Positions 4,401 through 48,700 of a stretch of 64,000 nt of DNA are shown here, piece by piece. Position 1 is the stretch's first letter. The number at the start of each line of letters is the position of its first letter. Origin of the DNA: Cenococcum geophilum (Eukaryota); contig CP158635.1 of the NCBI GenBank assembly GCA_050273025.1, forward strand, positions 15,748,001 to 15,812,000. Direction: 5' to 3'. The notes below the pieces were generated by a model that made no database searches, was not told the origin of the DNA, and saw only the letters and a list, made by a program, of their open reading frames with translations. Position numbers and translations under genes: made by a program.

Positions 4401-6075
4401 GGTTGTTTAGTGTAAGTACCTAGTTAGGATAATCTTTAGGAATAGTAAATACCGCTACCTCTCCTTTTAAAATAGCCTCTTCTAAGTTATCTATATTTCC
4501 CGTCCGCTTATATTAGCGAGATAGCATAATCCTAAGGTTAATTAGTATAATTGCCTAGTTAGGATAGTCTTGGGGAGTAGCAAACGCCGCCTCCTTTACT
4601 CTTAAGATGCCCGCTTTTAAGTCATTTATATTTCCTATCCGCTTATATTAGATTCTAAGGTCACTTTTAAAGTTGCTTAACCAACCTACCTAGTTAGGAT
4701 AGTCTTTGGGAATAGCAGATACCGCTACCCCTACTCTTAAAATGGCCGCTTTTAAGTTATCTATGTTTCCTATCCGTTTATATTGGCTTTTAAGTATACT
4801 CTTAAGGTTGCTTAGCCGACCTACCCGGTTAGAATAATCTTTAGGAGTAGCAGATACTACCTCCTCTACTCTTAAAATAGCCGCTTTTAAGTCATTTATA
4901 TTTCCTATCTGCTTATATTAGCCTTTAAGCTTACTCCCAAGGTTGCTTAAATATATTGCCCGGTTAAAATAGTCTTAGGGAGTAGCAGATACCGCTTCCT
5001 CTGCTCTTAAAATGGCCGCTTCTAAGTTATCTATATTTCTTATCCGCTTATATCGGTTTTTAAGTATATTTCTAAGGTTGTTTAGCCAACCTGCCTAGTT
5101 AGGATAGTCTTTAGGAGTAGTAGACACCGCCTCCTCTACTCTTAAAATAGCCGCTTTTAAGTTATCTATATTTCCCATCCGCTTATATCGGCCTTTAAGC
5201 GTACTCCTAAGGTTGCTTAAATACATTACCCGGTTAGGATAGCCTTAGAAAGTAGCAGAAACCGCTTCCTTTGCTCTTAAAATGGCCGCTTCTAAGTTAT
5301 CTATATTTCTCATCCGCTTATATCGGTTTTTAAGTATATTCCTAAGGTTGTTTAGCCGACCTACCTAGTTAGAATAGTCTTTGGGAGTAGCAGACACCAC
5401 CTCCTCTACTCTTAAGATGGCCGCTTTTAAGTTATTTATATTTCCTATCCGTTTATATTAGCGGGATAGTATAACTCTAAGGTTGCTTAGCTACCTTACC
5501 TAGTTAGAATAGTCTTCGGAAGTAGTAGATACTGCATTCTCTGCTCTTAAGATAGCTGCTTCTAAGTCATCCATATTTCCCGTTTACTTATATTAACTTA
5601 ATAGCGTATTCCCAAAGTTGTTTAGTATACCTACGCGGTTAGAATAGTCTTTAGGTATAATAGCGAGAGCTAGCTCTACCTTAGAGATCGCTTCTGCTAT
5701 ATTATCTTTTTTTAAGGTCCGTTTAAACCAAGCTATAAGTAACTCGTTTAGGATGTATAACTTAGTTACTAAATTAAATATGTCCCTAAATAATATTATA
5801 ACTGCCTATTTTATAGCCTAAATAGCTTTATCTAGGTCCTTAGTATTTTACGTTTAGCGAAACTAAGTTATAAGTATATGCTATAAGAGATTAACTCTCT
5901 TTTTTAGTATCCTATTATCTCTAGCTATTATATCTATAGCTTGTTTTGCTCTTTAGATAGACTCTTTTAAGTACTCCATACTACTAGATTGCAAAAATTA
6001 GGTATGGTTTGCTTTTATAAGAATAAATAGCATAGCAGTATTATCTAATAATGGTACGCTAGTAGACAGATCTAT
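1438..6075 (-). pseudogene. TPR-repeat + CHAT (caspase-clan) protease A1, RIP-inactivated
   Basis: CHAT motifs in one frame: RIWWIG...SLPFHAAG, YFACYG (for HFACHG), WIAYLLACSTAEV...LVSAFQVAGFGHVIGSL(W), C-terminal (W)APYIYLGA* ending at 1438. Preceded by 135-bp/45-aa TPR repeats. Many TAA/TAG where CAA/CAG/TGG is expected. Start approximate (ATA, probably a mutated ATG). Confidence 0.9.
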
Positions 6076-28182: not shown

Positions 28183-30300
28183 TTAGTTAGATCGCGGAGA
28201 TGTGTGTACTATGAAATCCAAAATTATCCACCTTCCCTTATGCATTGTTCTTTGCGTCGCTATAGGCCTTAGATTCCGGTGAGCGTCAGCTACAGGATTA
28301 TGCCGGACGAAAGCAGCCTCTATAGGGGTATCTGGCCAGATCAGGGAAACCTCCAGTAGTAGATTTAGCAGGGCTAGCTTATCCCACGACAAAGGGTGCT
28401 CGCCCCCGTAAACATACGCCCTTATTATATCATCGATCTCTAATAGATTATCTTCGCTGGCTTTACCAGGAATTTCCATTTCCACTATAGATCTAACAGG
28501 GTTGTTCCCTAATGCCTCTTCGGAAGGCTATCTACCTTAGGGACTTATTTTCTTAATACCCTAAGTGGCATTCAGACTAAAGAAAGCGACGTAGACTAGC
28601 TTTAGCCGTTTGTTGTTTACGAAAGATATAGTAATAGCTTGTCCTTCTTTAACCTTATATCCTCCGGAGGGCGACAGTAGTAGGGGTTTCTTATTAATAT
28701 CGAGAAGCTCAAAAGTAAAACTGTTAGGCGATAGTAAGCTCCGTAGATTATTATTCTAAAGACCTTAGATAGCTTTAAACCGCGCTAGATAGCAAAGAAG
28801 GTAAGCAAGCTTTTCCATTACTTCCTTATTATCTAAGGATATCTCCGGTAGTCGAGCGAGTTATACGCCCTACTCATTCCGAATCTCGAAATACTTTTCT
28901 GGATGGACTAAGATTTAAAAACTTGCTCTAGTAGCCTTATTATTGGAGCAGAGATAAAGCCCGGGCATTCTTTGAATTTCTAACTCTAATAAATTCCTAA
29001 TAATGTTAAGATTAGGCGCGTCCGGCATATAGTTAAACTTTATGTAGGTTTGTGATCCAAGAGCCTATATACAGAGGACGGCGTAACTACCGGGTTGGAC
29101 GGCTATGTCCTAGGGTGTTGTGTCACTATCTATAAGTAGTATGGCCTTAGACCGAAAATCAAAGACCTTATTAATACGGACTTATAGTAGATTTATCTTT
29201 TGGGGACCAAAATCGTCAGTTGGTGGGCCCCATTTAATATCCTATATCTTAGGGTAGATATTATAAATCGCGCCTTTAGCTATACCCTGAGCCCTCCCGA
29301 CATTCAGCTCCATGTAGCCATTGTGCTTCTTTAGAACCCGACACGCAGGTTATTAAATAAGGAGTTTCTCTCTAAAAAATTCGTAGTAGCTGTCACCATA
29401 GAGCACCGGTGATTGCCTTAGTTTTAGCACCATGGACCCAATCCTTAACGCCATATGCTCTCTCACCCTTGTGTATGTGGGCGGCCGCCCTTTAGGATAT
29501 CTGCGCAGAATATCTAACATCTAGCGTGTTAACACGCCGTTTCTGTCTTATACGCTTCCGAATATTTATTCGCCGGCAGTCTTGTTAACTCCGTAAGCAG
29601 TCAGAATAGTACAACTAACAGGATTTAAGAGCCAAGACTGTCTGACAGCAGCATTTCTGTGTCCTGGCTTAGGTGGGATATTAGTGGTGTTAGCGGTGTC
29701 GGCGGCCTTCGCAGTGGCATTAGCGGTCTTATTACTTAATAGCATGGAGTTATTAAATTGGTCCATCGATGTGCGAACCGCGAAGCTAGCTATGTCGCGC
29801 ATGCCTTGCCTAGAGAAGTAACTATCGAGCACTAGAGTCACTCGTAACTTCTTACCTTCTACTATATTCCTGATCTAGACTCCAAGTTAGTACCCCGTGA
29901 GATAGGCTCCCCCAGTTAAAACATCCGTAGGCACTAATACCGTGCCCAAGATATTATCGCCTTCCTCGTCCTATTGCCCTAGTTTATCCCGTCGGATTCT
30001 ATGTCCAGAGTAGTGGATATACACCAGGTCGCCCGGGCTGGCAGCGTCCTTAATGCGCTTCAGTTCGTTTATGATATTATTATAAGTTGGCCACGCGCTC
30101 TCGTCTTCCGTCGGCTTATCACCGCCATTGGATGCGGTAAGCTTGGTAATATCGCAAGGACCAACACTCTGCAAGTAGTTTTCAATGGCGAAGATATCTT
30201 GGACGTAGCCGTTTAAATATTGGTATGTAATAGGTCTCTCCTTGCCTTTGAAATAGTAGTTGATGCCAATTAACAGCGCCTACCTTTTGGTGCTGTCCAT
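28183..30300 (-). pseudogene. Caspase-like (Peptidase_C14/metacaspase) protein 2 with C-terminal extension, about 706 codons
   Basis: MDSTKR(W)ALLIGINYY...LNGYVQDI...WPTYNNII...GDLVYIHYSGH(R)...VTLVLDS(Y)FS(R), i.e. HYSGHG and DSCFSG after reverting G>A changes; ORF fragments share one frame. Confidence 0.9.
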
Positions 30301-36900: not shown

Positions 36901-39590
36901 CTATATACTACAATAGCAGTATTATCTTAAGGTTTTTACGCTCGCGGAAACTAGTAGGGAGGATAGCTAACCCGTACCGGCTATACCCTTGTTAAGGTGG
37001 CGTTTCCTAGATATTAGCGGTTAAAGCTCTAGTATAGTCATTATGTAAGGTATTATCTATTTAACTAAAGCCTCTTTCCTTAGCTAAAGAAAGGTGGCCG
37101 CTATAGAGTCGGCCGCTATAATTATAGGAGGTGGGTTTATCTGGGATTTTTAAATATATAGCCTAGAGCGATTGTTATTAATAATAGTTATTAATAGAGC
37201 TGTTACCCTACAAGGCTAAATCTGCCTTTTATTACTTAAAATATTTAGGCGGTTAATAAGCTAAGACCTATACATTAGTCTCTATAGATGACTTTATTTT
37301 ACTACCTTTTATTTATATACGTAAGCGCAGTGTCCGCCTTTAAACTATAATCCCCTTACTTATAATAAACCGACTTAAGGTATACTAATTGATACTATTA
37401 GTACTAAGATAGAAAATATATACCTTCTTTACTTCCCCCTTTATATTTAATTTTTATAATTAATATAGCTACTATAGGAACTTATAATCCTTTAATATAA
37501 TATCTGCTTTAAGCTTAACTAGCTCTTAAATATAAATCTAAAGTATTCCCAGCTAATCTATAATTAGGCGCTTATACTTTCTATAACTATTAATTCTATA
37601 GCTATATACTATATTACTACCAGAGACTTATTTAAAGAAGATTTATAAAATTGTAATAGTGATTTTATCGATTCTAGTAAGCTCCTTTTAGCTTCTAGCT
37701 TATCCCTTTTACCTATAGGTGAGCTAGCTAAATAGACTAAGGTAAGTACTGCTAATCAGTTTTCCTCTTATAACGGTAATTTAATACCATCTTAAGGCGT
37801 TAACACGACCCCCTAAAAGTCTCCCGCGCCTTCTCTTTAACACCCTTTATTCTATATGGAAAACTAGTTCCCCTCTATAGCTATAAACTCATTAATCTAA
37901 AGTATGGAGACATTATAGTAAAGTTCTAGTAGTTAACCCTATAATTGTACGGATAACTAGAAAGAAGAGAAAGAATAGTTACTATCTTAGGTAGATAAGT
38001 AACACTATAAAGAGCCTTAATAATTAATTAACCATAATCTTTAATATATAAGGTAGGACGACCAAACATAGGCGCGTAAAGAGGGGCAGGATAAAGTAGA
38101 GTTGGATAATATTTATAAACGGGATAACGTAATAGAAGAACGTACAAAAGATGTTTCTTTTATTAGATATGATCCTAAACCGCAAAGCAAAACATACTAA
38201 AGAGAAGGAGTATAATTGCCTATAAATAAAAAGCAACTATAATAAGCTAAGTCTACTAAAATACTAAACGCAGCGATTACTAGGTCTGGAAGGACGATAT
38301 TAGAGCGGCTTTGGATTAAACAAAAAGTTAATAATTAGCACTCCTATAAGGTTAAAAGGCTATAGAAACAAACTCTAAAGGAGATTCTACCTATCTATAA
38401 CTATAAATTTCCATTAATAGAGATATATTAAACCTTTACTAACTATAGCTCGTTAGATAATTCTAATAGGCTCTAGCTCCTTACTTACTTATTCTTCGCG
38501 GTTACTAGCTAGAATACTTTTATATAGTTATAAAATTCCTATCTTACTATTTAGGAGAGTATAAGCACAGTTATTCTTTTTTTTAGTAATACAGTATCCG
38601 TAAATATGGAGTCTCTAAATTAATTAGATATCTTACTTACTATAGCTTTTATTATAAAGCGATTCCACCTAATTAAATTAGTAGAAGCTTATATATAACT
38701 AGAATAGAATTACCGGCTTTAACCGGTCTGGTAGACCAGATATTAGCGGAATAAAGAGCGAATATCGGAACTAGGTTATTGCGGCTAGGCTGCTTCCCGC
38801 GCTCTAGACGATATACTATCCTAGGCATATCCTAAACTTATAAGGTATATAGTTAAGTATAATAAACGATTAACTACCCTAAAAAATAGACTTAGTTAGG
38901 GACACAACTGGCATATACTAGCAGCTTAATTTAGTACTAGTATCCTTACTTTAGTCCTAATTAATAGTGATTTTAGTATCCACAACCGCGAGTAAGCTTC
39001 CTTCCTGCTAGTAGAATCTACACTAGGCTAACTTCCTATAGTATTAAAAGACTTCTAGTAGATGATTTTAAATTGCTTATTAATATTTTAGATAAAGAAT
39101 GTAGTGGTTTTCTCTATAAATACAGCCAATAGATGACTTACTTTCTTAATTTCCTCTTAGGACCAATTCTAGAGAGAAAATATATGCTTAAGGATACGGA
39201 TAGATCCCTTGTAAAGGAGGAGCTATTTAACTTACTAGGTTTAATAGAATACCTAGAACTAAATAGGTAAATATTAGCGTAGATTTTTACAGTATATAGG
39301 GATATGTGTTAATTATATATATAGATTATTATAACTAAAAAGCTTAATATAGCTCTTACTATATCTATTTATAAACTTTACGCAAAGACAAATTTAATAG
39401 GCATTGTATTTAGGTTTAGGGCTTTTAGAAGGCTCTTAATCCTAGGAGAATTAATCTTAATTACCTATTCCTACCTTTATTTTCTAGTATAATTACTATA
39501 AAGGAACTATAAATAGTGTAGATAGTAGTAAAAGAATAAAAGATTAGAGATATAGTAAAGTGTGAGGCTTTATACGCCTAAGGTAACACT
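30915..39590. repeat. Right arm of large inverted repeat B
   Basis: Reverse complement of 17735-25750; carries an extra about 300-bp segment near 31550-31850 that is not in the left arm. Confidence 0.88.
32050..36522 (+). pseudogene. TPR-repeat + CHAT protease B2 (inverted paralog of B1), RIP-inactivated
   Basis: ATG at 32050, intron-like gttagt near 32385, 13 clear 135-bp units (anchors 32874 ... 34494), CHAT motifs (W)WIPT...HLPLYAAG, KIFHFTSY, LAGFRHIVGTL(W)EV and terminal (W)VLYIHFSV*. Confidence 0.9.
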
Positions 39591-39860
39591 CTAGGTAATA
39601 TAAAAGTCAAATAGTATAATAAAAGAGCTGTATTTTATTTTAATAATAATAAGAACACTAGGGAAATGCAATAGAATATTAAGGAGGAATTGTTAAGAGT
39701 AGGGACTTATTAAGAGTAGGGACTTATTAAGCTATATCCGTTTAATTAGTATTATATTCCTAAGTCGTTTCTTATAATACTAGTAAAGGAATATAGTGCT
39801 AGGGAAGTGCGGGCCAATTAAAAGCCGAGAAGCTAAGGACAAAAATAAATCCTAGCGCTC

Positions 39861-39950
39861 TATTCCCCTAGGGGATTATTCCCCTAGGGCTTTATTCCCC
39901 TAGGGCTTTGTTCCCTTAGGGCTTTATTCCCCTAAGGCTTCATTCCCCCC
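39861..39950. repeat. About 16-bp tandem repeat x5 (tattcccctagggctt) ending in a C-run
   Basis: Directly visible; the core ccctaggg is palindromic. Confidence 0.8.
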
Positions 39951-40104: not shown

Positions 40105-40265
40105 TTTATAAACGTCCTGGATTATAGCTTTGACCGTACTAATGTCTGGAAAACGCCACCTTGATAAGGGTGTGGCCGGAGTGGGTTAGCCGTCCTCCCT
40201 ACTAACGGTGGCGAGCTTAAGTATCTTATACGTTAATTATCTCCTTATAAATACTACTAATTATC
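40105..40265 (+). repeat. Dispersed about 100-160-bp non-coding element (other copies about 20270-20370 +, 36920-37030 -, 45455-45545 -, 49605-49735 -)
   Basis: Core ...tctggaaaacgccaccttgataagggtgtggccg...gccgtcctccctactaacggtggcgagcttaag, or parts of it, recurs at the listed sites. Confidence 0.7.
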
Positions 40266-40550
40266 CTACCCCCAAACGATTACCGTTGCTTAATTTATAC
40301 GATAATTTGCTTTACATAGCCACTTAACCTCTTATAGATTTGCAGCGCCACTAAGTAAGTAGTTAATAACTAATAATTGTAACACTAATATATTTAGGTA
40401 GTAGTTAATAAAACTACCCTATACCTATAAATATAACTTAAACCATCCTTTTATAACAATATAGTTACCTATCTACCTACCTATATAATCTTTAACAGCG
40501 TATCCTTTTCTCTTATAACTTCGCTTCTAATAGTTCTAGTAAGTAAAGGC

Positions 40551-43500
40551 ATAGGTAATAATTAGTCATTTACGGTAGGCTATAGCCCCTACTATAAGGC
40601 CTTAATATTAGTTAACAGCATAACTAGAGGGTAAGTATTCTCTATAGGATAATTAATATTATTCTAATATACTTATTTATAGGAGGTAAGTAGACCTATA
40701 AACACTGACCTGCGAGGCTGCTGCTAATAGTATTATATTTAGTAGTATAGGACGTAAGTAAACCTGCGAATACTAACCTGCGAGGCTACTACTAATAGTA
40801 TTATATCTAGTAGTGTAAAAAGTAAGTAGACCTATAAATACTAACCTATGAGGCTGCTACTAATAGTATTATATCTGGTAGTATAGGACGTAAGTAAACC
40901 TATAAACACTAACCTATAAGGCTGCTGCTAATAGTATTATGTCTAGTAGTGTAGGACGTAAGTAAACCTATAAACACTAACCTATAAGGCTGCTGCTAAT
41001 AGTGTTATATCTAGTAGTGTAGATAGTAGGTAGACCTATAAATACTAACCTATAAGGCTGCTGCTAATAGTATTATATCTAGTAGTATAGATAGTAAGTA
41101 GACCTATAAATACTAACCTATAAGGCCGCTGCTAATAGTGTTATATCTAGTAGTATAGGAGGTAAGTAGACCTGCGAATACTAATTTACGAGGCTGCTGC
41201 TAATAGTATTATATCTAGTAGTGTAGACGGTAAGTAGACCTGTAAATACTAACTTATAAGGCTGCTGCTAATAGTGTTATATCTAGTGGTGTAGTATATA
41301 AGTAGACCTACAAACACTAACCTGCGAGGCTACTACTAATAGTGTTGTGTCTAGTAATATAGGAGGTAAGTAAACCTACAAATACTAACCTATAAGGCTA
41401 CTGCTAATGGTGTTATATCTAGTAGTATAGGACGTAAGTAGACCTGCAAATACTAACCTATAAGGCTGCTGCTAATAGTATTATATCTAGTAGTATAGCT
41501 AATAAGTAGACCTGCGAACACTAACCTACGAGGCTGCTGCTAATAGTATTATATCTAGTAGTATAGGAGGTAAGTAGACCTGTAAATACTAATCTGTAAG
41601 GCTGCTGCTAATAGTATTATATCTAGTGGTATAGACGGTAAGTAGACCTATAAACACTAACCTATAAGGCTGCTGCTAATAGTGTTATATTTAGTAGTAT
41701 AGGAGGTAAGTAGACCTGCGAATACTAACCTACGAGGCTGCTGCTAATGGTGTTGTGTCTAGTAGTGTAGATGGTAAGTAGACCTATAAATACTAACCTG
41801 CGAGGCTGCTGTTAATAATGTTATATATAGTAGTATAGGCGGTAAGTAGACCTGCAAATACTAACCTGCGAGGCTGCTATTAATAGTGTTATATTTAGTG
41901 GTGTAGGAGGTAAGTAGACCTATAAACACTAACCTACGAGGCTGTTGCTAATGGTATTGTGTCTGGTAGTGTAGGACGTAAGTAGACCTACAAATACTAA
42001 CCTACAAGGCTGCTGCTAATAGTATTATATTTAGTAGTATAGAAGGTAAGTAGACCTACGAACACTAACCTACGAGGCTGCTGTTAATAGTGTTGTGTTT
42101 AGTAATGTAGGTAGTAAGTAGACCTATAAATACTAACCTATAAGGCTGCTATTAATAGTGTTATATTTAGTGGTATAGATAGTAAGTAGACCTATAAATA
42201 CTTACCTATGAGGCTACTACTAATAGTATTATATCTAGTGGTGTAGGACATAAGTAGACCTATAAATACTAACCTATAAAGCTGCTGTTAATGGTGTTAT
42301 ATTTAGTAGTATAGAAGGTAAGTAGACCTGCAAACACTGACCTATAAGGCTGCTGTTAATAGTATTATATCTAGTAGTATAGGTAGTAAGTAGACCTGTA
42401 AATACTAACCTATAAGGCTGCTGCTAATAGTGTTGTATTTAGTGGTGTAGATGGTAAGTAGACCTATAAATACTAACCTACGAGGCTGCTGCTAATAGTG
42501 TTGTATTTAGTGGTGTAGGACGTAAGTAGACCCGCGAATACTAACCTACGAGGCTGCTGCTAATAGTATTATGTCTAGTAGTATAGGACGTAAGTAGACC
42601 TGCAAATACTAACCTACGAGGCTACTGCTAATAGTATTATATCTAGTAGTATAGGACGTAAGTAGACCTACAAACACTGACCTGCGAGGCTGCTACTAAT
42701 AGTATTATGTCTAGTGGTGTAGTTTATAAGTAGACCTACAAATACTAACCTACGAGGCTGCTGCTAATGGTATTATGTCTAGTGGTATAGCCGGTAAGTA
42801 GACCTGTAAATACTGACCTACGAGGCTGCTGCTAATGGTATTATATCTAGTAGCGTAGTATATAAGTAGACCTACAAACACTGACCTACGAGGCTGCTGC
42901 TAATAGTGTTATGTCTGGTAGTATAGGATGTAAGTAGACCTGTAAACACTAACCTGCGAGGCTACTGCTAATGGTGTTGTGTCTGGTGGTGTAGGACGTA
43001 AGTAGACCTGCGAATACTGACCTGCGAGGCTGCTGCTAATAGTGTTATGTTTGGTAGTATAGCCGGTAAGTAGACCTATGAACACTGACCTGCGAGGCTG
43101 CTGCTAATAGTGTTGTGTTTGGTGGTATAGGACGTAAGTAGACCTGCGAGCACTGACCTGCGAGGCTGCTGCTAATGGTGTTGTGTCTGGCGATGTAGCG
43201 GGTAAGTGTACCGCGGATTGCTCCTATATGTGACCGCTAGAACTAATAACAATTTGGAAGTAGTACAATGATTGGTATCTCGATTTCAACGATTCCTTTG
43301 CAAGAGGCTTCTACGCAGATTTTCCATCGCGTGCGCTACCTGCCACAGTGCACTGTTGTCCCTGCTGCAGCACCTTTCTAGATAATGCTATTGGGGGTGC
43401 TGCTTATAAGGCTAGCCTTTCCGATCTATGTACTTCTGCGGAAAGCTGTTCGGTCTGCGGAATGCTTCTCCGAGCATTTAAGCACTGCCGCAATGATAAT

Positions 43501-45223
43501 AACGGAAATATCGTCGTAGAGCGAATAAGCTCGGCACTTAGGGCAGGAATAGGAGGCCCGCGCCTTTTGCGGTTTTGTATGGATCCAGGTTAGTGTGTAT
43601 AACTCCTCTTATGCATTGGACAGAAACAATACTAATTGCATATCTTTGCTATAGAATACGCTGTTTACACTAATTATAACACCCTAATCGGCCTCCCAAT
43701 TCAACCTGAACCTGATAACTATGTATGATTTGCACTGCTTTGCGCATGGCTTCGTTGGTGCGATAAGTCCCACGACTGTAATAAGCACCAAGGTGAATCG
43801 AAGATAGCATTGCCAACAAGAGTCCTCTACGTTGGTGATCTAAACGATTTGGGTTATAGTTCAGATTTTATATGTCTGGTTTGTGCCTTGGAAACAAACA
43901 GGTAGGAATACATCGCATTATCTCACTGCTGGGGCAACCTCTCAGTCGAAAAGAAGAAAGGGTACTGCATAACACAGGACAATATTAGCCAACGGCTGGA
44001 AGGATTTAGTCTCTCTGAACTACCGAAGACTTTCCAAGACGCTGTTAAAGTGACCCGAGAACTTGGCGTCCCATACCTCTGGATCGACTCTCTCTGCATC
44101 ATCCAATACGAGGACAATGATGAGGACTGGAAACGCGAATCTGTCCAAATGGAAGCCGTCTTTTCGGCAGCTTATTGTACAATCGCTGTAACTGCGGCTG
44201 TCGACTCTAACGCAGGGTTCTTAGAGCGGGACGTAAACCCTAAGTCTGTCTATGTTCAAGATACCTTAGGCAAGCAGTTCTATATCAGCGCCGATATAGA
44301 TGATTTTGACAGCGATGTGGCCAAGGCTTAGCTCAATATGCGAGCATGGGTAATGCAAGAAGGGGTTTTAGCGCGACGGACTATCCACTTCAGCGCCAAT
44401 CAGATATACTGGGAGTGTGGGAAAGGGGTTTACTGCGAAAACCTTACTAGGCTGGAAAGGTACGAGCTCTACAAGACCTAAATTAAAACGCTCCTAACTA
44501 GACATCTTTCTCATCAGCAAATTTGAGAAAAAGCACTTTACGCTCGATCCAAACTTCCTAAGTTGGCTTATTGGATTAGGCAGGGAGCGTACCACGAGGT
44601 TCATTTACTTTCTCTTTGAAGACTACTCGAAGCGGGACCTTACAGTCGAAACCGACAGATATGTTGTAATATCTGGGTTACAGAATCGTATTGCAGGCGC
44701 TTTAGGATGTTAAAGCAGATACGGTGTCTTCTAGAAGTCCCTTTACAGGAATCTCCTCTGGCGGCCGTCTGATAATAAAATAAAGAAGATTCTATACAAA
44801 ACCTAGCATATGCCATTGTGGTCATGGATGGCATATAGTGGAGGCATTCAGTTTATAAAAATCCCTTACAGCAAAGTTGACTGGATTAATAACCTCCGGT
44901 TTAATAAAGAGCGTAAATAGGCACTAGTTACCAACCTAGGAGGTTTCAGGTACTGTATGATGGAACCGGATGGGAAACAGTATGCTATCTTGGATTTTAG
45001 TGGAACGAATAGAGGCTGGGTATAGTACGATGTTGAGGACGGCGAAGATATTTGTAAAGAATAATGTGTTGTTGTAAAAAGGACGAGGAATAGTAATGTT
45101 GAGAAGTACTATGTACTAGTTATCAGGCTGACCAGTATGGATGGTAAGTATGGGAGGGTTGGAGTTGGGCTGATTCAGAGTGGCTGTGTACTGAGATAAG
45201 AAACTAACGTGCGAGTAGTGTGA
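40551..45223 (+). pseudogene. HET-domain (PF06985-type, tol/het-6-like) gene whose 5' part is built from single-codon micro-exons
   Basis: Exon from 43264 (YNDWYLDF...CPCC...CSVCGML), introns 43589-43654 and about 44460-44517, HET motifs LPTRVL, YIALSHCWG, LPKTFQDAVKVTRELGVPYLWIDSLCIIQ, DWKRES..M..VFSAAYCTIA, RAWVMQE; stop at 45221-45223; several premature stops. Start uncertain (ATA at 40551 or 40530). Confidence 0.85.
40686..43201 (+). repeat. 37 x 68-bp tandem array; each unit is a 65-nt intron-like sequence plus a variable 3-nt micro-exon
   Basis: Consensus GTAAGTAGACCTGCGAACACTGACCTGCGAGGCTGCTGCTAATGGTGTTGTGTCTGGTGGTGTAG + NNN; exact 68-bp period from 40686 to 43134; non-transition variation is almost confined to the NNN. 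Confidence 0.93.
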
Positions 45224-45789
45224 ACGAAGTTGCGCTAGAACATCTGGAGGAGTGGCGGATGCACACATAGACTTAATGTCGATTTCTAGCATAGTCTGCG
45301 TATACTCTTCGTCTACTTATATGACGTTTGACAGTGAAAGATCTCACCATAAAGACAGCTGGATTAAATGAATCTAAGCAGGTTTGCTAAATGCTTGGGC
45401 GCGGGGGCGACCATTTATCGACCCTTATCCACTCCCTATACGAAACGGATTTAGTGGCAAGATAATTAGTGGTATTTAAAAGTAGACAATTGACGCATAA
45501 GATACTTAAGCTCGCCACCGCTAGCAGGGAGGACGGCCGGAGCGGGTCGGCCACCCTCCCTACTAGCGCAACGAAGGGGCAAGAACTTTGCCACGTATCG
45601 TCGCCCTTAACATTTTCTGGAAACATCTAAAATCCTAGCAGCTAATTTAACTACGATAGGCCTAATAGAAACTGCTAGGAGAGATATATACTATAAATAT
45701 ATATTGCCCTCCAGAACCTTTTATAGAATAGTGAGTTTAGAAAGGTATAAATCGTCCTATTGCTAGCTTCTTAAGAACTATACTAGCGC

Positions 45790-48700
45790 TAACTACATCT
45801 TACCTTATTAAGACGGAGTTAAAGAAATGTTATCCTACCTAATGAATGCCCTATATAGATTAAGTCTCTATTAACGGCGGTGCAGTTTGGTCAATATTTA
45901 GGGGGAAGCCAAAGGATAGCCTTCTTATTAGAACTTATTCACTCATTTTCAACAAATATAGCAGTTAGCTCTTTTTCCTAAGAAAGGAATGTCCTTAAAC
46001 AAGACTAAGGAAGAAGGATATCTCCTCTATCTGTCTTTAGATACCGGCTATTAGGCGAAAAGGCTACAGTAAGGACTAAGTTAGAATGATCCTTGAGGGT
46101 ATTGCGGCAAGACCCTATCACTACATTCCAGAACCGTATAGTGTCGTCTTTAGATGCCGACGCTATTAGCTAGCCATCTGGAGAGAAAGCTACAGCCCTA
46201 ACCCAGTCAGAATGGCCCTTAAGGGTGCCGCGGCAAGACCCCGTCACTACCTCCCACAGCCGTATATTGTAATCGTAGGATGCCGATACTACTAGCTGAC
46301 TATCTGGCGCAAACGCTATAGTAAGGACCGAGTTAGAATGGCCCTTAAGGGTGCTGCGGTAAGACCCTGTCGCTGCGTCCCAGAGCCGTACAGTGTGGTC
46401 TCCGGATGCCGACGCTATCAGCTGGCCATCCGGCGAGAAGGCTACGGCGTTAATGGGGCTGGAATGGCCCTCGAGCGTGTTACGGCAGGATCCTGTTGCT
46501 ACCTCCCAGAGCCGTACAGTGTGGTCGTTAGATGCCGACGCTAACAGCTGGCCATCTAGAGAGAAGGCTACAGTAAGGACCGAGTTAGAATGGCCCTCGA
46601 GCGTACTACTGCAGGACCCTGTTGCTGTCTCCCATAGCTATATAGTGTGGTCATTAGATGCCGACGCTACTAGCTGGCCATCTAGGGAGAAGGCTACAGC
46701 AAGGACCCAGTCGGAATGGCCCTTGAGCGTACTATGGCAGGACCCTGTCACTGCCTCCCAGATCCATACAGTGTGGTCGTCAGATACCGACGCTACTAGC
46801 TGACCATCCGGCGAGAAGGCTACAGCCCTAACCCAATCGGAATGGCCCTTAAGTGTACTGCGGCAAGCGTCCCAATTATCTTCGCCCTTTAATAGCCTAC
46901 TAATCCACCCCGGAATATGGTTGGTAAATACCTTCCGTATTATACTTATTTCTAGGGCGAAAATAAGGGCTGAAGAATAAACCTATAGAGGTGCATCTTC
47001 TAATATGGGTTGGAACCGCCGAATAAATTGCTTCGTATTATAAAGAAATCTTAAGCTAGCACTTTTATTAGACTGTGTTATAAGTAAGCATAGTAAGTAT
47101 AATAGAATGCGTAAGCCGTCTTACTTCTATAAGCGCTTATAGGCTATTAACTATAGGAATGCATTTATATGTTTCTCTAATAAGGCTTATGGCTTCTAGC
47201 TAGTAAAGGAAATACTTATAGAGGAAAAGGTAGATTAAGTCCCCGTTGTGGATATAGCGTTTTCTCTACTTTAGATGGTGCACCTAATAACAGCAAGTAT
47301 ACTATAACTTAGGTGGTAGACCGCGAGCAACTATTTGTTTATTAATCTTGCTTCTCAAAATCCCGGGTACGGCAAGGTTGCATATATTCTGCCGTAGGCC
47401 TTTTAGGCTAGATATTAGTTCAAGGCACTAAGATACTAGCCGGTTATGTATATCCTTCTCATCTATCCAGAATGGGTTCTTTCCCTGCTTTTAAAGATCG
47501 ATAAGAAACTCGCGGAAGGACAGATACAGGAGCCTTACGGGTACATCCTCTCTATAAGGAATGCTGAGAACAGAATATAGAGAGTCTAGCTAGCACCTAA
47601 TCTGCTATTAGGGAATTTGAAGAAGGTGTGCAAGTAAGGTAATAGAGAGAGGACTCCCTAAAACGATAATACTTCCAACTAGTTCTTGGAATCCGCGAAG
47701 CCATACTTCCTTGTCTTCCTCCTCCTAGTTAGCAAGTAGCTGGTTTAGGATAGGGAGATAAGTCCGCTCGAGCTGCGAGAATGTTAATCTACGGTACTGC
47801 AGAACATTTTTCAAATAACCTTCAGGATCGCTCCCTTTAGATCCAATGTACCGACAGACTATGGCAGCGAAGATAAACAATGGGACACTCAGCTCCACCA
47901 GGGCCTGGATTTGGTCTCTACTAGGCCAGTTTGGGGACAGTAAGCGCTACTGTCGTATTTCTCCGAGTTTATGCTCTAAGAAGAGGCGTATGTCATGTTT
48001 AATCGTTTGCTTCGCGACCTTATCCAGGATTAGGTCTTAGTATATGCCATCACGCATTTGTCTAAAACTAAGGCGAATGTGTAGCTTTAGTCTGCTTGTT
48101 ACAAAGACCTATAGCGACACTAGCTTAAGGCCCCTAGTTCGTAAAAGAAGCTTAAGAATTACTCATACATCTTTATCTAGCTCGCACTTATCTAGCGCGT
48201 CTATTACGACAACTAGATCTAAAGCTTAAAGAGGTACTGCTTCTAAAAGCGGCTAAAAGATTAGCTTCTCAAACTGGTCTTCTAGAGCCTTCTCGGAGAT
48301 AGCTGGATCCGCATTAATTACTTTCCTAACGCCTAATCTCATTCCTAGTACATAACCTATTAGATCTATAACAATAGTAGTAAAGAATCGTATGGCATTG
48401 CCACATTCTCCCTCGCCCCTCCTAAAGAAAAAGCTGGCTCCTAATTAACATTAGTTGGAGAATAACTGGGAAACAGTACGTGTAATTATAGACTTTCCCA
48501 TACCTGCTATACCATTTAGCCAGAATATAGGTTTGCTGCTTTTATCCCTTGCCCATTCTCTTATTCAATACAGCAACTCAGTTCGCGTGTTTAGAAGGCA
48601 TCTTGTATTATATTCCTCCATATACGAGTTAAAAGACGCTCCTTTTGCGATCAGTAGGTCAATTAAGTTATTATCCTTAATCTCTTTCCGGAGTCGATTT

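Follow-up and report, generated by a model that had tools for sequence, protein, structure and literature searches.

Several described systems share features with the locus reported here. Introns are reported to be gained by tandem genomic duplication (PMC4974935), and in Zymoseptoria within-gene tandem duplication gives <1% of recent single intron gains (PMC4457414). A defining mark of introner-like elements (ILEs) is their presence as numerous copies among unrelated genes (PMC4457414), the micro-exon genes (MEGs) of Schistosoma have symmetric exons of 3-81 bp (bioRxiv 10.1101/2023.06.21.545858), and the WD repeats of the Podospora HET/NWD genes contain hypervariable sites within highly conserved repeats (PMC1805685, PMC2873952, PMC4986451). 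A literature search with subscription journals outside its coverage yielded no account, for fungi, of near-identical introns in tandem with single codons as spacers. An arrangement of this type is present in a 64,000-nt stretch of Cenococcum geophilum DNA (contig CP158635.1, positions 15,748,001 to 15,812,000), which we call the window, directly ahead of the remains of a HET-domain gene. Our best explanation, held with moderate confidence, is that the triplets of the window are the one-codon spacers of an array of complete short introns plus one codon each that was killed by repeat-induced point mutation (RIP), and that in live relatives such triplets are likely to be real one-codon exons.

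All coordinates below are positions in the window. The array was studied at 40683-43201 on the plus strand, where Tandem Repeats Finder (TRF) reported a single array (40678-43182) with a period of 68, 36.8 copies, 84% matches and 0% indels. A degenerate unit pattern matched 37 times, always in register at a spacing of 68 nt and with no match in the rest of the 64 kb, against a chance expectation of 0. Cutting at 40686+68k gave 37 units of 65 nt, each preceded by 3 nt, beginning with GTAAGT or a transition variant of it and ending with TAG. Counting the triplet behind the last unit, 38 triplets lie in the interval. The original prediction, made from the sequence of the window, had described 37 micro-exon triplets spelling an acidic peptide; its 37-letter string is exact from the second triplet onward, and a first triplet, GAG, adds one E. 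The array and the features that adjoin it are as follows.

40631..40682, plus strand: intron A, an ordinary 52-nt intron, AT-rich and RIP-mutated, just upstream of the array
40683..43201, plus strand: the array, 37 x 65-nt units with donors at 40686+68k, first triplet GAG at 40683-40685 and last triplet CGG at 43199-43201
43202..43263, plus strand: the last intron, unique, 62 nt, GTAAGT ... ACTAAT ... TAG, with its first 11 nt unit-like
43264..43588, plus strand: exon encoding the conserved N-terminal region in a family of HET-domain genes, starting YNDW, with no Met ahead of the conserved part
43589..43654, plus strand: intron, GTTAGT ... TAG, in a position shared with the related locus L005
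43655..45220, plus strand: remainder of the HET-domain pseudogene, with a further intron near 44460-44530

At the sequence level the units have the donors, acceptors and branch sites of U2-type GT-AG spliceosomal introns. In 36 parsed window units the donors were GTAAGT (30), ATAAGT (5) and GTAGGT (1), the acceptors were TAG (35) and TAA (1), and ACTRAC was present along with GCTAAT as branch-like motifs. Six splice sites of the window are destroyed: the first donor base is changed from G to A in units 10, 13, 24, 31 and 33 (ATAAGT at 5 of 37 donors), and the acceptor of unit 2 is TAA (1 of 37). Every window unit contains stops in all three frames, and plus-strand read-through of the array is thereby blocked. 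Upstream, intron A is homologous, by place and by sequence, to the intron that precedes the first triplet in three of the related arrays described below (L004, L005 and the large array). An in-frame TAG at 40625-40627 destroys the exon ahead of intron A, so an upstream start codon is out of reach in the window copy. Downstream, the triplet frame passes the unique 62-nt intron and enters the exon that starts YNDW, in agreement with the predicted continuation of the triplet peptide into the next exon. A phase-0 intron is present at the same position in L004 and L005, and, judged by eye, several homologues seem to have read-through of an intron of this type as their N-terminus.

We found that the differences among the window units are those of RIP-mutated repeats, being of the transition type and accompanied by skewed dinucleotide indices (2.38 and 0.50 for the array). 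Across the 65 intron columns of the 37 units, 31 were invariant, 32 varied by transitions only and two carried one transversion each, amounting to 2 transversions in 2405 cells. Variable G columns mostly followed T, and variable C columns preceded A or G. Because nearly all of the intron differences are transitions, the 37 introns were practically identical before RIP. In contrast, each of the three triplet columns contained all four bases (1.5-1.85 bits each), and the 38 triplets sorted into seven of the eight possible purine/pyrimidine classes. Since transitions cannot swap purine and pyrimidine, at least seven distinct triplets were already present before RIP. The original prediction had proposed a limited codon vocabulary and had attributed some triplets to RIP (gta from gcg, cta from ccg, ata from acg or atg). 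The first proposal is borne out by the seven classes set against 2/2405 intron transversions; the second is plausible, as these changes are pure transitions, stay within a class and fit the intron spectrum.

The gene behind the array is also dead. A Pfam HET domain (PF06985) at 43906-44328 scored 91.8 bits (E=6.8e-26), above the curated cut-off of 22.5, and in-frame stops occur at 43726-43728 (TGA), 43903-43905 (TAG) and 44329-44331 (TAG). The corresponding residues in relatives are R, Q and Q. Each of these stops is a single C-to-T step from the R or Q codon type of the relatives. Lying in a RIP graveyard, the window copy is a pseudogene that cannot function. Its N-terminal exon (43264-43588) had 42 relatives at E up to 0.001 in a representative protein library; four of the five checked by name were from Pleosporales (Boeremia, Lentithecium, Plenodomus), two of these being annotated as HET-domain proteins, and a 640-residue Boeremia protein aligned across 43264-45220. 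As the conserved N-terminal exon has no Met, translation must begin upstream of it. Live copies in which the exon behind the array lacks its own start codon would then have to be read across the array, and every unit would have to be removed exactly. Homologues that lack an array either start 1-3 residues ahead of YNDW or have a longer extension. In one public gene model, that of the Lentithecium fluviatile HET-domain protein P0004, residues 1-21 are the translation of unit-like intron sequence directly ahead of the homologous exon; this model skips the conserved YNDW start and is probably wrong at its 5′ end.

A metagenome scan with the conserved middle block of the unit returned 13 loci, and a scan with the 5′ half of the unit returned no matches. 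Two of the 13 (L001 and L007) were chance matches inside unrelated coding sequence. The other 11 contained units, on nine contigs, and three of these loci (L009-L011) were pieces of a single contig with about 60 units, here called the large array. In all, the scan gave at least six further arrays of the window design. Parsing with a hidden Markov model (HMM) assigned 37 units to the window, 61 to the large array, 18 to L002, 23 to L003, 25 to L004, 22 to L005, eight to L008, two each to L012 and L013, and one to L006. In all six cases in which the gene behind the units could be identified (window, large array, L004, L005, L006 and L008), it belonged to the same HET family and stood at the same position; no gene was identified behind the units of L002, L003, L012 or L013, the L002 contig being without one. 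RIP had mutated four of the seven arrays compared (window, large array, L002 and L004), and in three of these (window, large array and L004) there are stops in the exon that follows the array. L003, L005 and L008 have flanks free of RIP. A long HET reading frame is open in the L005 gene, as is the first coding exon of L008.

The design of the array ends was also shared. The first triplet was GAA, or GAG or AAA instead, in all six arrays that retain the upstream intron, and the last intron starts like a unit at several loci. L003 and L013 have a 36-nt first exon with an ATG, coding a similar 12-residue peptide, and the first exon of L005 is 24 nt; lengths of 36, 36 and 24 nt place these exons in phase with the triplets. 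In our reading the array lies behind a short first exon and ahead of the HET-domain gene's conserved N-terminal exon, and related HET genes on Dothideomycete-like contigs carry from 1 to about 60 units at the same place.

Splice signals and spacing were kept in the arrays related to the window copy. The HMM parse gave a spacer of 3 nt at 184 of 189 junctions; four of the five exceptional junctions were parse artefacts beside small intron deletions, and the fifth was an interruption of the large array. Intron lengths across the arrays were 61-72 nt. Donors were GTAAGT at 22/22 units of L003 and at 20/21 of L005, the remaining one being GTAAGC, and acceptors fitted YAG at 22/22 in L003 and AG at 21/21 in L005. 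A branch block (GCTAAT, GCTAAC or GCTGAT) lies ~22 nt upstream of the acceptor and is conserved in every array. L005, whose gene is intact, keeps its splice signals and branch block despite an intron diversity of 0.21 per site, which is stronger evidence of constraint than the constant spacing.

These features suggest how a live array would work. Filamentous ascomycetes define short introns one by one, so units would be removed singly and the triplets would be left in the mRNA as 3-nt exons. We infer that in live relatives the units are most likely excised individually as ordinary short introns and that the triplets are translated, in which case they would code a low-complexity, fast-changing linker. 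A spliced unit adds exactly one codon and any pairing of donor and acceptor keeps the frame, so growth and shrinkage of the array would be tolerated. Such arrays may expand and contract through the copying of units, each consisting of a triplet and the following intron, and of larger blocks.

Next, we compared the mean pairwise transversion diversity of triplets and introns in seven arrays. Triplets exceeded introns in all seven. In the window the values were 0.43 for triplets and 0.002 for introns, a ratio of 248; the ratio was 48 in the large array, 28 in L002, 22 in L003, 13.5 in L004, 6.7 in L005 and 4.7 in L008. Triplet diversity was also far above that of the intron segments that vary most between arrays (0.62 vs 0.09 in L003). 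Neutral decay of a single ancestral triplet, the alternative against which the original prediction had set itself, is ruled out by this excess, which in addition extends the proposed codon vocabulary from the window to the other arrays; the bias against stops that had been expected to accompany it was not significant, and the bias toward D and E was not shared between arrays.

The excess also bears on a non-coding alternative, in which the array is a composite intron or 5′ leader that is spliced out, skipped or left untranslated, so that the triplets never appear in protein. If the triplets were neutral, a diversity 5-250 times that of neighboring intron sites in their own units would not be expected, and internal splice sites and 3-nt spacing are kept in diverged arrays of intact genes. 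Filamentous ascomycetes use short introns, those of 1.5-4 kb being unusual, and one-step removal of an array of that length would be correspondingly out of the ordinary. In favor of a non-coding array, skipping all of the units keeps the frame, the first exon and the next coding exon both being in phase 0, and array-less homologues begin 1-3 residues ahead of YNDW. With the further points given below, we regard a non-coding array as unlikely on balance.

Triplet identity tracked the lineage of the downstream intron in three of the seven arrays (L005, P=0.005; L002, P=0.002; L004, P=0.010), indicating that units are copied along with their triplet; in L004 the triplets tracked the upstream intron too. 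The association was weak in the large array (P=0.07) and absent in L003 and the window. For the window, a tree of introns that ignores transitions could not be built, as just two single transversions are left. The check that had been suggested for the window, that triplet identity should follow intron lineage, was therefore successful in L005, L002 and L004 and failed in the window and L003. Block duplication, also proposed, occurs in a relative, the large array. This block copy, which accounts for the fifth exceptional junction above and lies on the reverse strand at ~5555-5660 of the merged L009-L011 contig, comprises 106 nt with a copy of the last intron and ~50 nt of the exon start. It is a segmental duplication carrying the array end, after which the array resumes. 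In L002, a contig of 1207 nt, introns fall into length classes of 65 and 66 nt that differ near columns 13-17; the 65-nt class lies mostly behind the triplet type TAT, resembling a two-type higher-order pattern.

Larger repeats were sought in both triplets and introns. A 4-unit block duplication had been predicted in the window. The adjacent blocks are real, with three triplets identical and the fourth one transition apart, but the statistics are equivocal: shuffling of the 38 triplets gave P ~0.01 for a strictly tandem block vs P=0.43 for the longest repeated run anywhere, and the introns lend no support. Intron similarity revealed no higher-order repeats in any of six arrays. In the window, mean intron identity was flat (0.85-0.87 over lags 1-20) and there was no matching diagonal.

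Travel of triplets with their downstream intron in three arrays is difficult to reconcile with an introner-like mobile intron that inserted repeatedly between the codons of an older exon, leaving triplets as exon remnants. Such an element would account for intron copies with exact boundaries beside differing triplets, it would suit a Dothideomycete-like lineage, in which introner-like elements are known (PMC4457414), and in one read set of organism B, one of two organisms with public data, a unit follows GC-rich sequence unlike the usual context. There is no known ruler that would space ~190 insertions exactly 3 nt apart, however, and the large array has only about four founder codon classes across its 60 units. 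Every identifiable host is of the same HET family with the units at the same position, rather than a set of unrelated genes. The array peptides were also unlike the N-terminal extensions of array-less homologues, with nothing beyond chance in 21 comparisons (best P=0.05). We consider repeated insertion very improbable. A DNA-transposon-type introner with a 3-bp target duplication was rejected, as terminal inverted repeats were absent by eye and neighboring triplets are mostly unlike.

We also asked what the triplets encode. The count of 17 D/E among 37 given in the original prediction was correct and becomes 18/38 with the added triplet. The D/E share was 0.49 in the window and 0.30, 0.16, 0.23, 0.28, 0.43 and 0.35 in the other arrays, and the commonest other codons varied between arrays. 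GA- triplets made up 63 of the 192 parsed from the pooled arrays, a high share, with GAA/GAG as the shared first triplet; splice-site consensus likewise favors G behind the acceptor and A two bases before the donor. Peptide likeness reached P<0.05 in 1 of 21 pairs of arrays (L002 vs the large array, P=0.023), which is the chance level, and the window vs L005 gave P=0.22. Comparison of peptides among homologous arrays, which had been put forward as a check, thus revealed no similarity beyond that of shuffles. With a D/E share of 0.16-0.43 in six homologous arrays and peptides that are unlike, the proposed selection for an acidic segment was not upheld. Much of the acidity of the window peptide stems from two amplified founder codons, GAC and GAG, and it does not reflect a conserved acidic function.

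These results also weaken a specificity code, in which translated triplets would be diversified by selection as a recognition or bait segment and the identical introns would serve as recombination substrates. The host is of the HET-domain family and lies among broken WD40, CHAT and caspase-domain genes of a kind that occurs in fungal immune genes of the NLR type, the triplets are almost saturated in diversity beside near-identical introns, and the pattern recalls the hypervariable WD repeats of Podospora HET/NWD genes (PMC1805685, PMC2873952). Yet the peptides are of low complexity and unrelated between loci, and neither acidity nor any other common property runs through the arrays. Selection alone would require three changes per 3 nt and none per 65 nt between adjacent units, and the only tie to proteases is that they share the window. 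We judge a specificity code to be decidedly unlikely.

Several observations weigh against one-codon exons in live relatives. First, the ~14 intron length variants lead one to expect only ~0.6 spacer indels by chance, so the constant 3-nt spacing is compatible with constraint and is not proof of it. Second, stop avoidance was not significant, either in the window (0 stops vs 1.1 expected, P=0.32) or in the three arrays free of RIP (0/52 vs 2.6 expected, P=0.07); in the RIP-mutated arrays 4 of 140 triplets were stops, all TAG. The lack of significant stop avoidance, like the lack of peptide conservation between arrays, would be expected of a non-coding array. Third, unit duplication alone fails to explain near-identical introns with triplets that differ at up to 3/3 positions: in L003, adjacent units may have identical introns and yet triplets unlike at all three. 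Fourth, runs of 3-nt exons in fungi were not found documented in our literature search.

Finally, RNA did not support unit splicing. The stretch was present in public DNA data for organisms A and B and, at 0.24-0.29 of its words, in root metatranscriptomes. Runs with a small share were given no weight as evidence of habitat. We compared 42990-45000, which includes about three units, with RNA data comprising one run of raw reads and three sets of contigs, and splicing of the units was supported by none of them. Spliced forms were not alignable in this comparison, the 3-nt exons being too short. RNA contigs identical to the window covered only 43661 onward, and depth was zero in all four RNA runs over 43194-43660, a result that is uninformative by itself. 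Contigs X6, X7 and X14, from three RNA libraries, retain the end of a unit, a triplet and the donor that follows without splicing, which favors a non-coding array; contigs of this type (775-1509 nt) share a 34-nt match and have unlike flanks, pointing to a paralogue. Raw reads of organism B, nine at most, show another unspliced unit. Taken together, the RNA data neither show nor exclude unit splicing.

Protein word searches likewise returned no transcript-derived protein with spliced triplets. The N-terminal exon matched none of the longer proteins, the 63-aa minus-strand open reading frame (ORF) of the array had no match, and the L005 exon matched, among proteins of near length, P0003 alone, which is a fragment derived from a genome. 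Minus-strand coding was dropped, its ORFs being just 63-64 aa with a stop in each third unit. Rfam reported no family on the L003, L005 and L008 arrays and one sub-threshold match elsewhere, and the idea of a snoRNA host was dropped for this reason. A structured RNA was also rejected, with unit fold z-scores of +1.2 to -0.5.

At two joints (44387 to 44448; 44497 to 44593), root metatranscriptome contigs leave out segments with CT..AC boundaries. Such ends are GT..AG on the minus strand and indicate a spliced antisense transcript over the dead HET gene (43661-45000).

One-codon exons in live relatives remain our preferred explanation. For the coexistence of alike introns and unlike triplets, candidate causes are strong selection on triplets, recent growth from few founders, and copying limited to the intron. 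In an extended form of this explanation, live arrays would consist of true one-codon exons whose introns are homogenized up to their exact borders, making the array a codon-by-codon generator of diversity at the N-terminus of fungal self/non-self proteins, and a RIP magnet as well. The homogenizing process might be gene conversion by DNA copies of excised introns. Identical introns would then allow unequal exchange and free splice pairing to shuffle, add and drop single codons, and the attraction of RIP would eventually kill the gene, as in the window. We think this extended form unlikely.

The array neighborhood is AT-rich and holds broken WD40, CHAT and Peptidase_C14 pieces. An inverted repeat brackets the array and the HET pseudogene.

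40189..40276, no strand: left arm of the inverted repeat, 88 nt, 86% complementary
45450..45537, no strand: right arm, which pairs with the left arm

A third related copy of the inverted repeat lies at 36928-37017, 3 kb upstream; these 88-nt repeats may be mobile-element ends or the remains of a dispersed repeat. Tandem repeats occur in the AT-rich stretch upstream at 39693-39731 (17 nt x 2.3, 100% matches) and 39851-39948 (16 nt x 6.1, 85%). A WD40-repeat gene at 46005-46982 on the minus strand, with ORF pieces to ~49308, is split by stops into consecutive ORFs of the same frame, and there is strong similarity among its repeats. Convergent in orientation to the HET pseudogene, it is probably an NLR-type gene damaged by RIP. 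CHAT-domain and Peptidase_C14 (caspase-domain) sequences are present as short open fragments at 1831-2316 and 29974-30279, both on the minus strand. These are the nearby caspase-clan proteases to which the acidic peptide had speculatively been linked as an Asp-rich target. Nothing beyond co-location connects them with the array; the fragments are broken and lie 10-38 kb away.

Taken alone, the window gives a modest result, since its acidic peptide is unconserved and the copy is dead; what makes it of interest is the family that it revealed. If the triplets are spliced in, no runs of 3-nt exons longer than these arrays would be known, and the protein could be altered one codon at a time without the frame ever being broken. 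The arrays are also a natural experiment on intron gain, offering dozens of young, near-identical introns per gene and the comparison of old with young arrays. Identical introns beside unlike codons call for very strong selection or for copying limited to the intron, and either outcome would be relevant to the origin of introns and to fungal allorecognition. RIP damage in four of seven arrays indicates the cost of the design.

How, then, do the arrays compare with the systems named at the outset? Like introns gained by tandem duplication, the units are direct, head-to-tail copies with their own donor and acceptor, removable without a break in frame (PMC4974935). The known cases are single, whereas the arrays repeat an intron plus one codon up to ~60 times, recur at one place in a gene family, and combine unlike codons with alike introns. 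With ILEs the units share near-identity, canonical spliceosomal signals, exact boundaries and a Dothideomycete-like lineage (PMC4457414). Unlike ILEs, the array copies are tandem and have no unusual fold stability, and all identifiable hosts are one HET family with the units at one position; on the nine metagenome contigs with units we found no spread to unrelated genes. The MEGs provide a parallel in their runs of very short exons, any subset of which stays in frame, and in their place at an interface of self and non-self. The symmetry of MEG exons, multiples of three, is present in the arrays at the DNA level. MEG introns are long and mutually unrelated and the products are secreted worm proteins, whereas in the arrays every putative exon is 3 nt long, the introns are near-copies of 65 nt and the host is a fungal cytoplasmic HET-domain gene. 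Podospora WD units are 42 residues long. Like the arrays, these repeats are tandem and conserved with few hypervariable positions, undergo unequal exchange, are exposed to RIP and belong to incompatibility or NLR-type genes. The pattern of conservation in the arrays fits that of hypervariable coding repeats, but the conserved part is intron-like, with stops in all three frames. Whereas the whole Podospora repeat is coding, in the arrays it is the intron that is conserved, and the putative exon varies over its full length.

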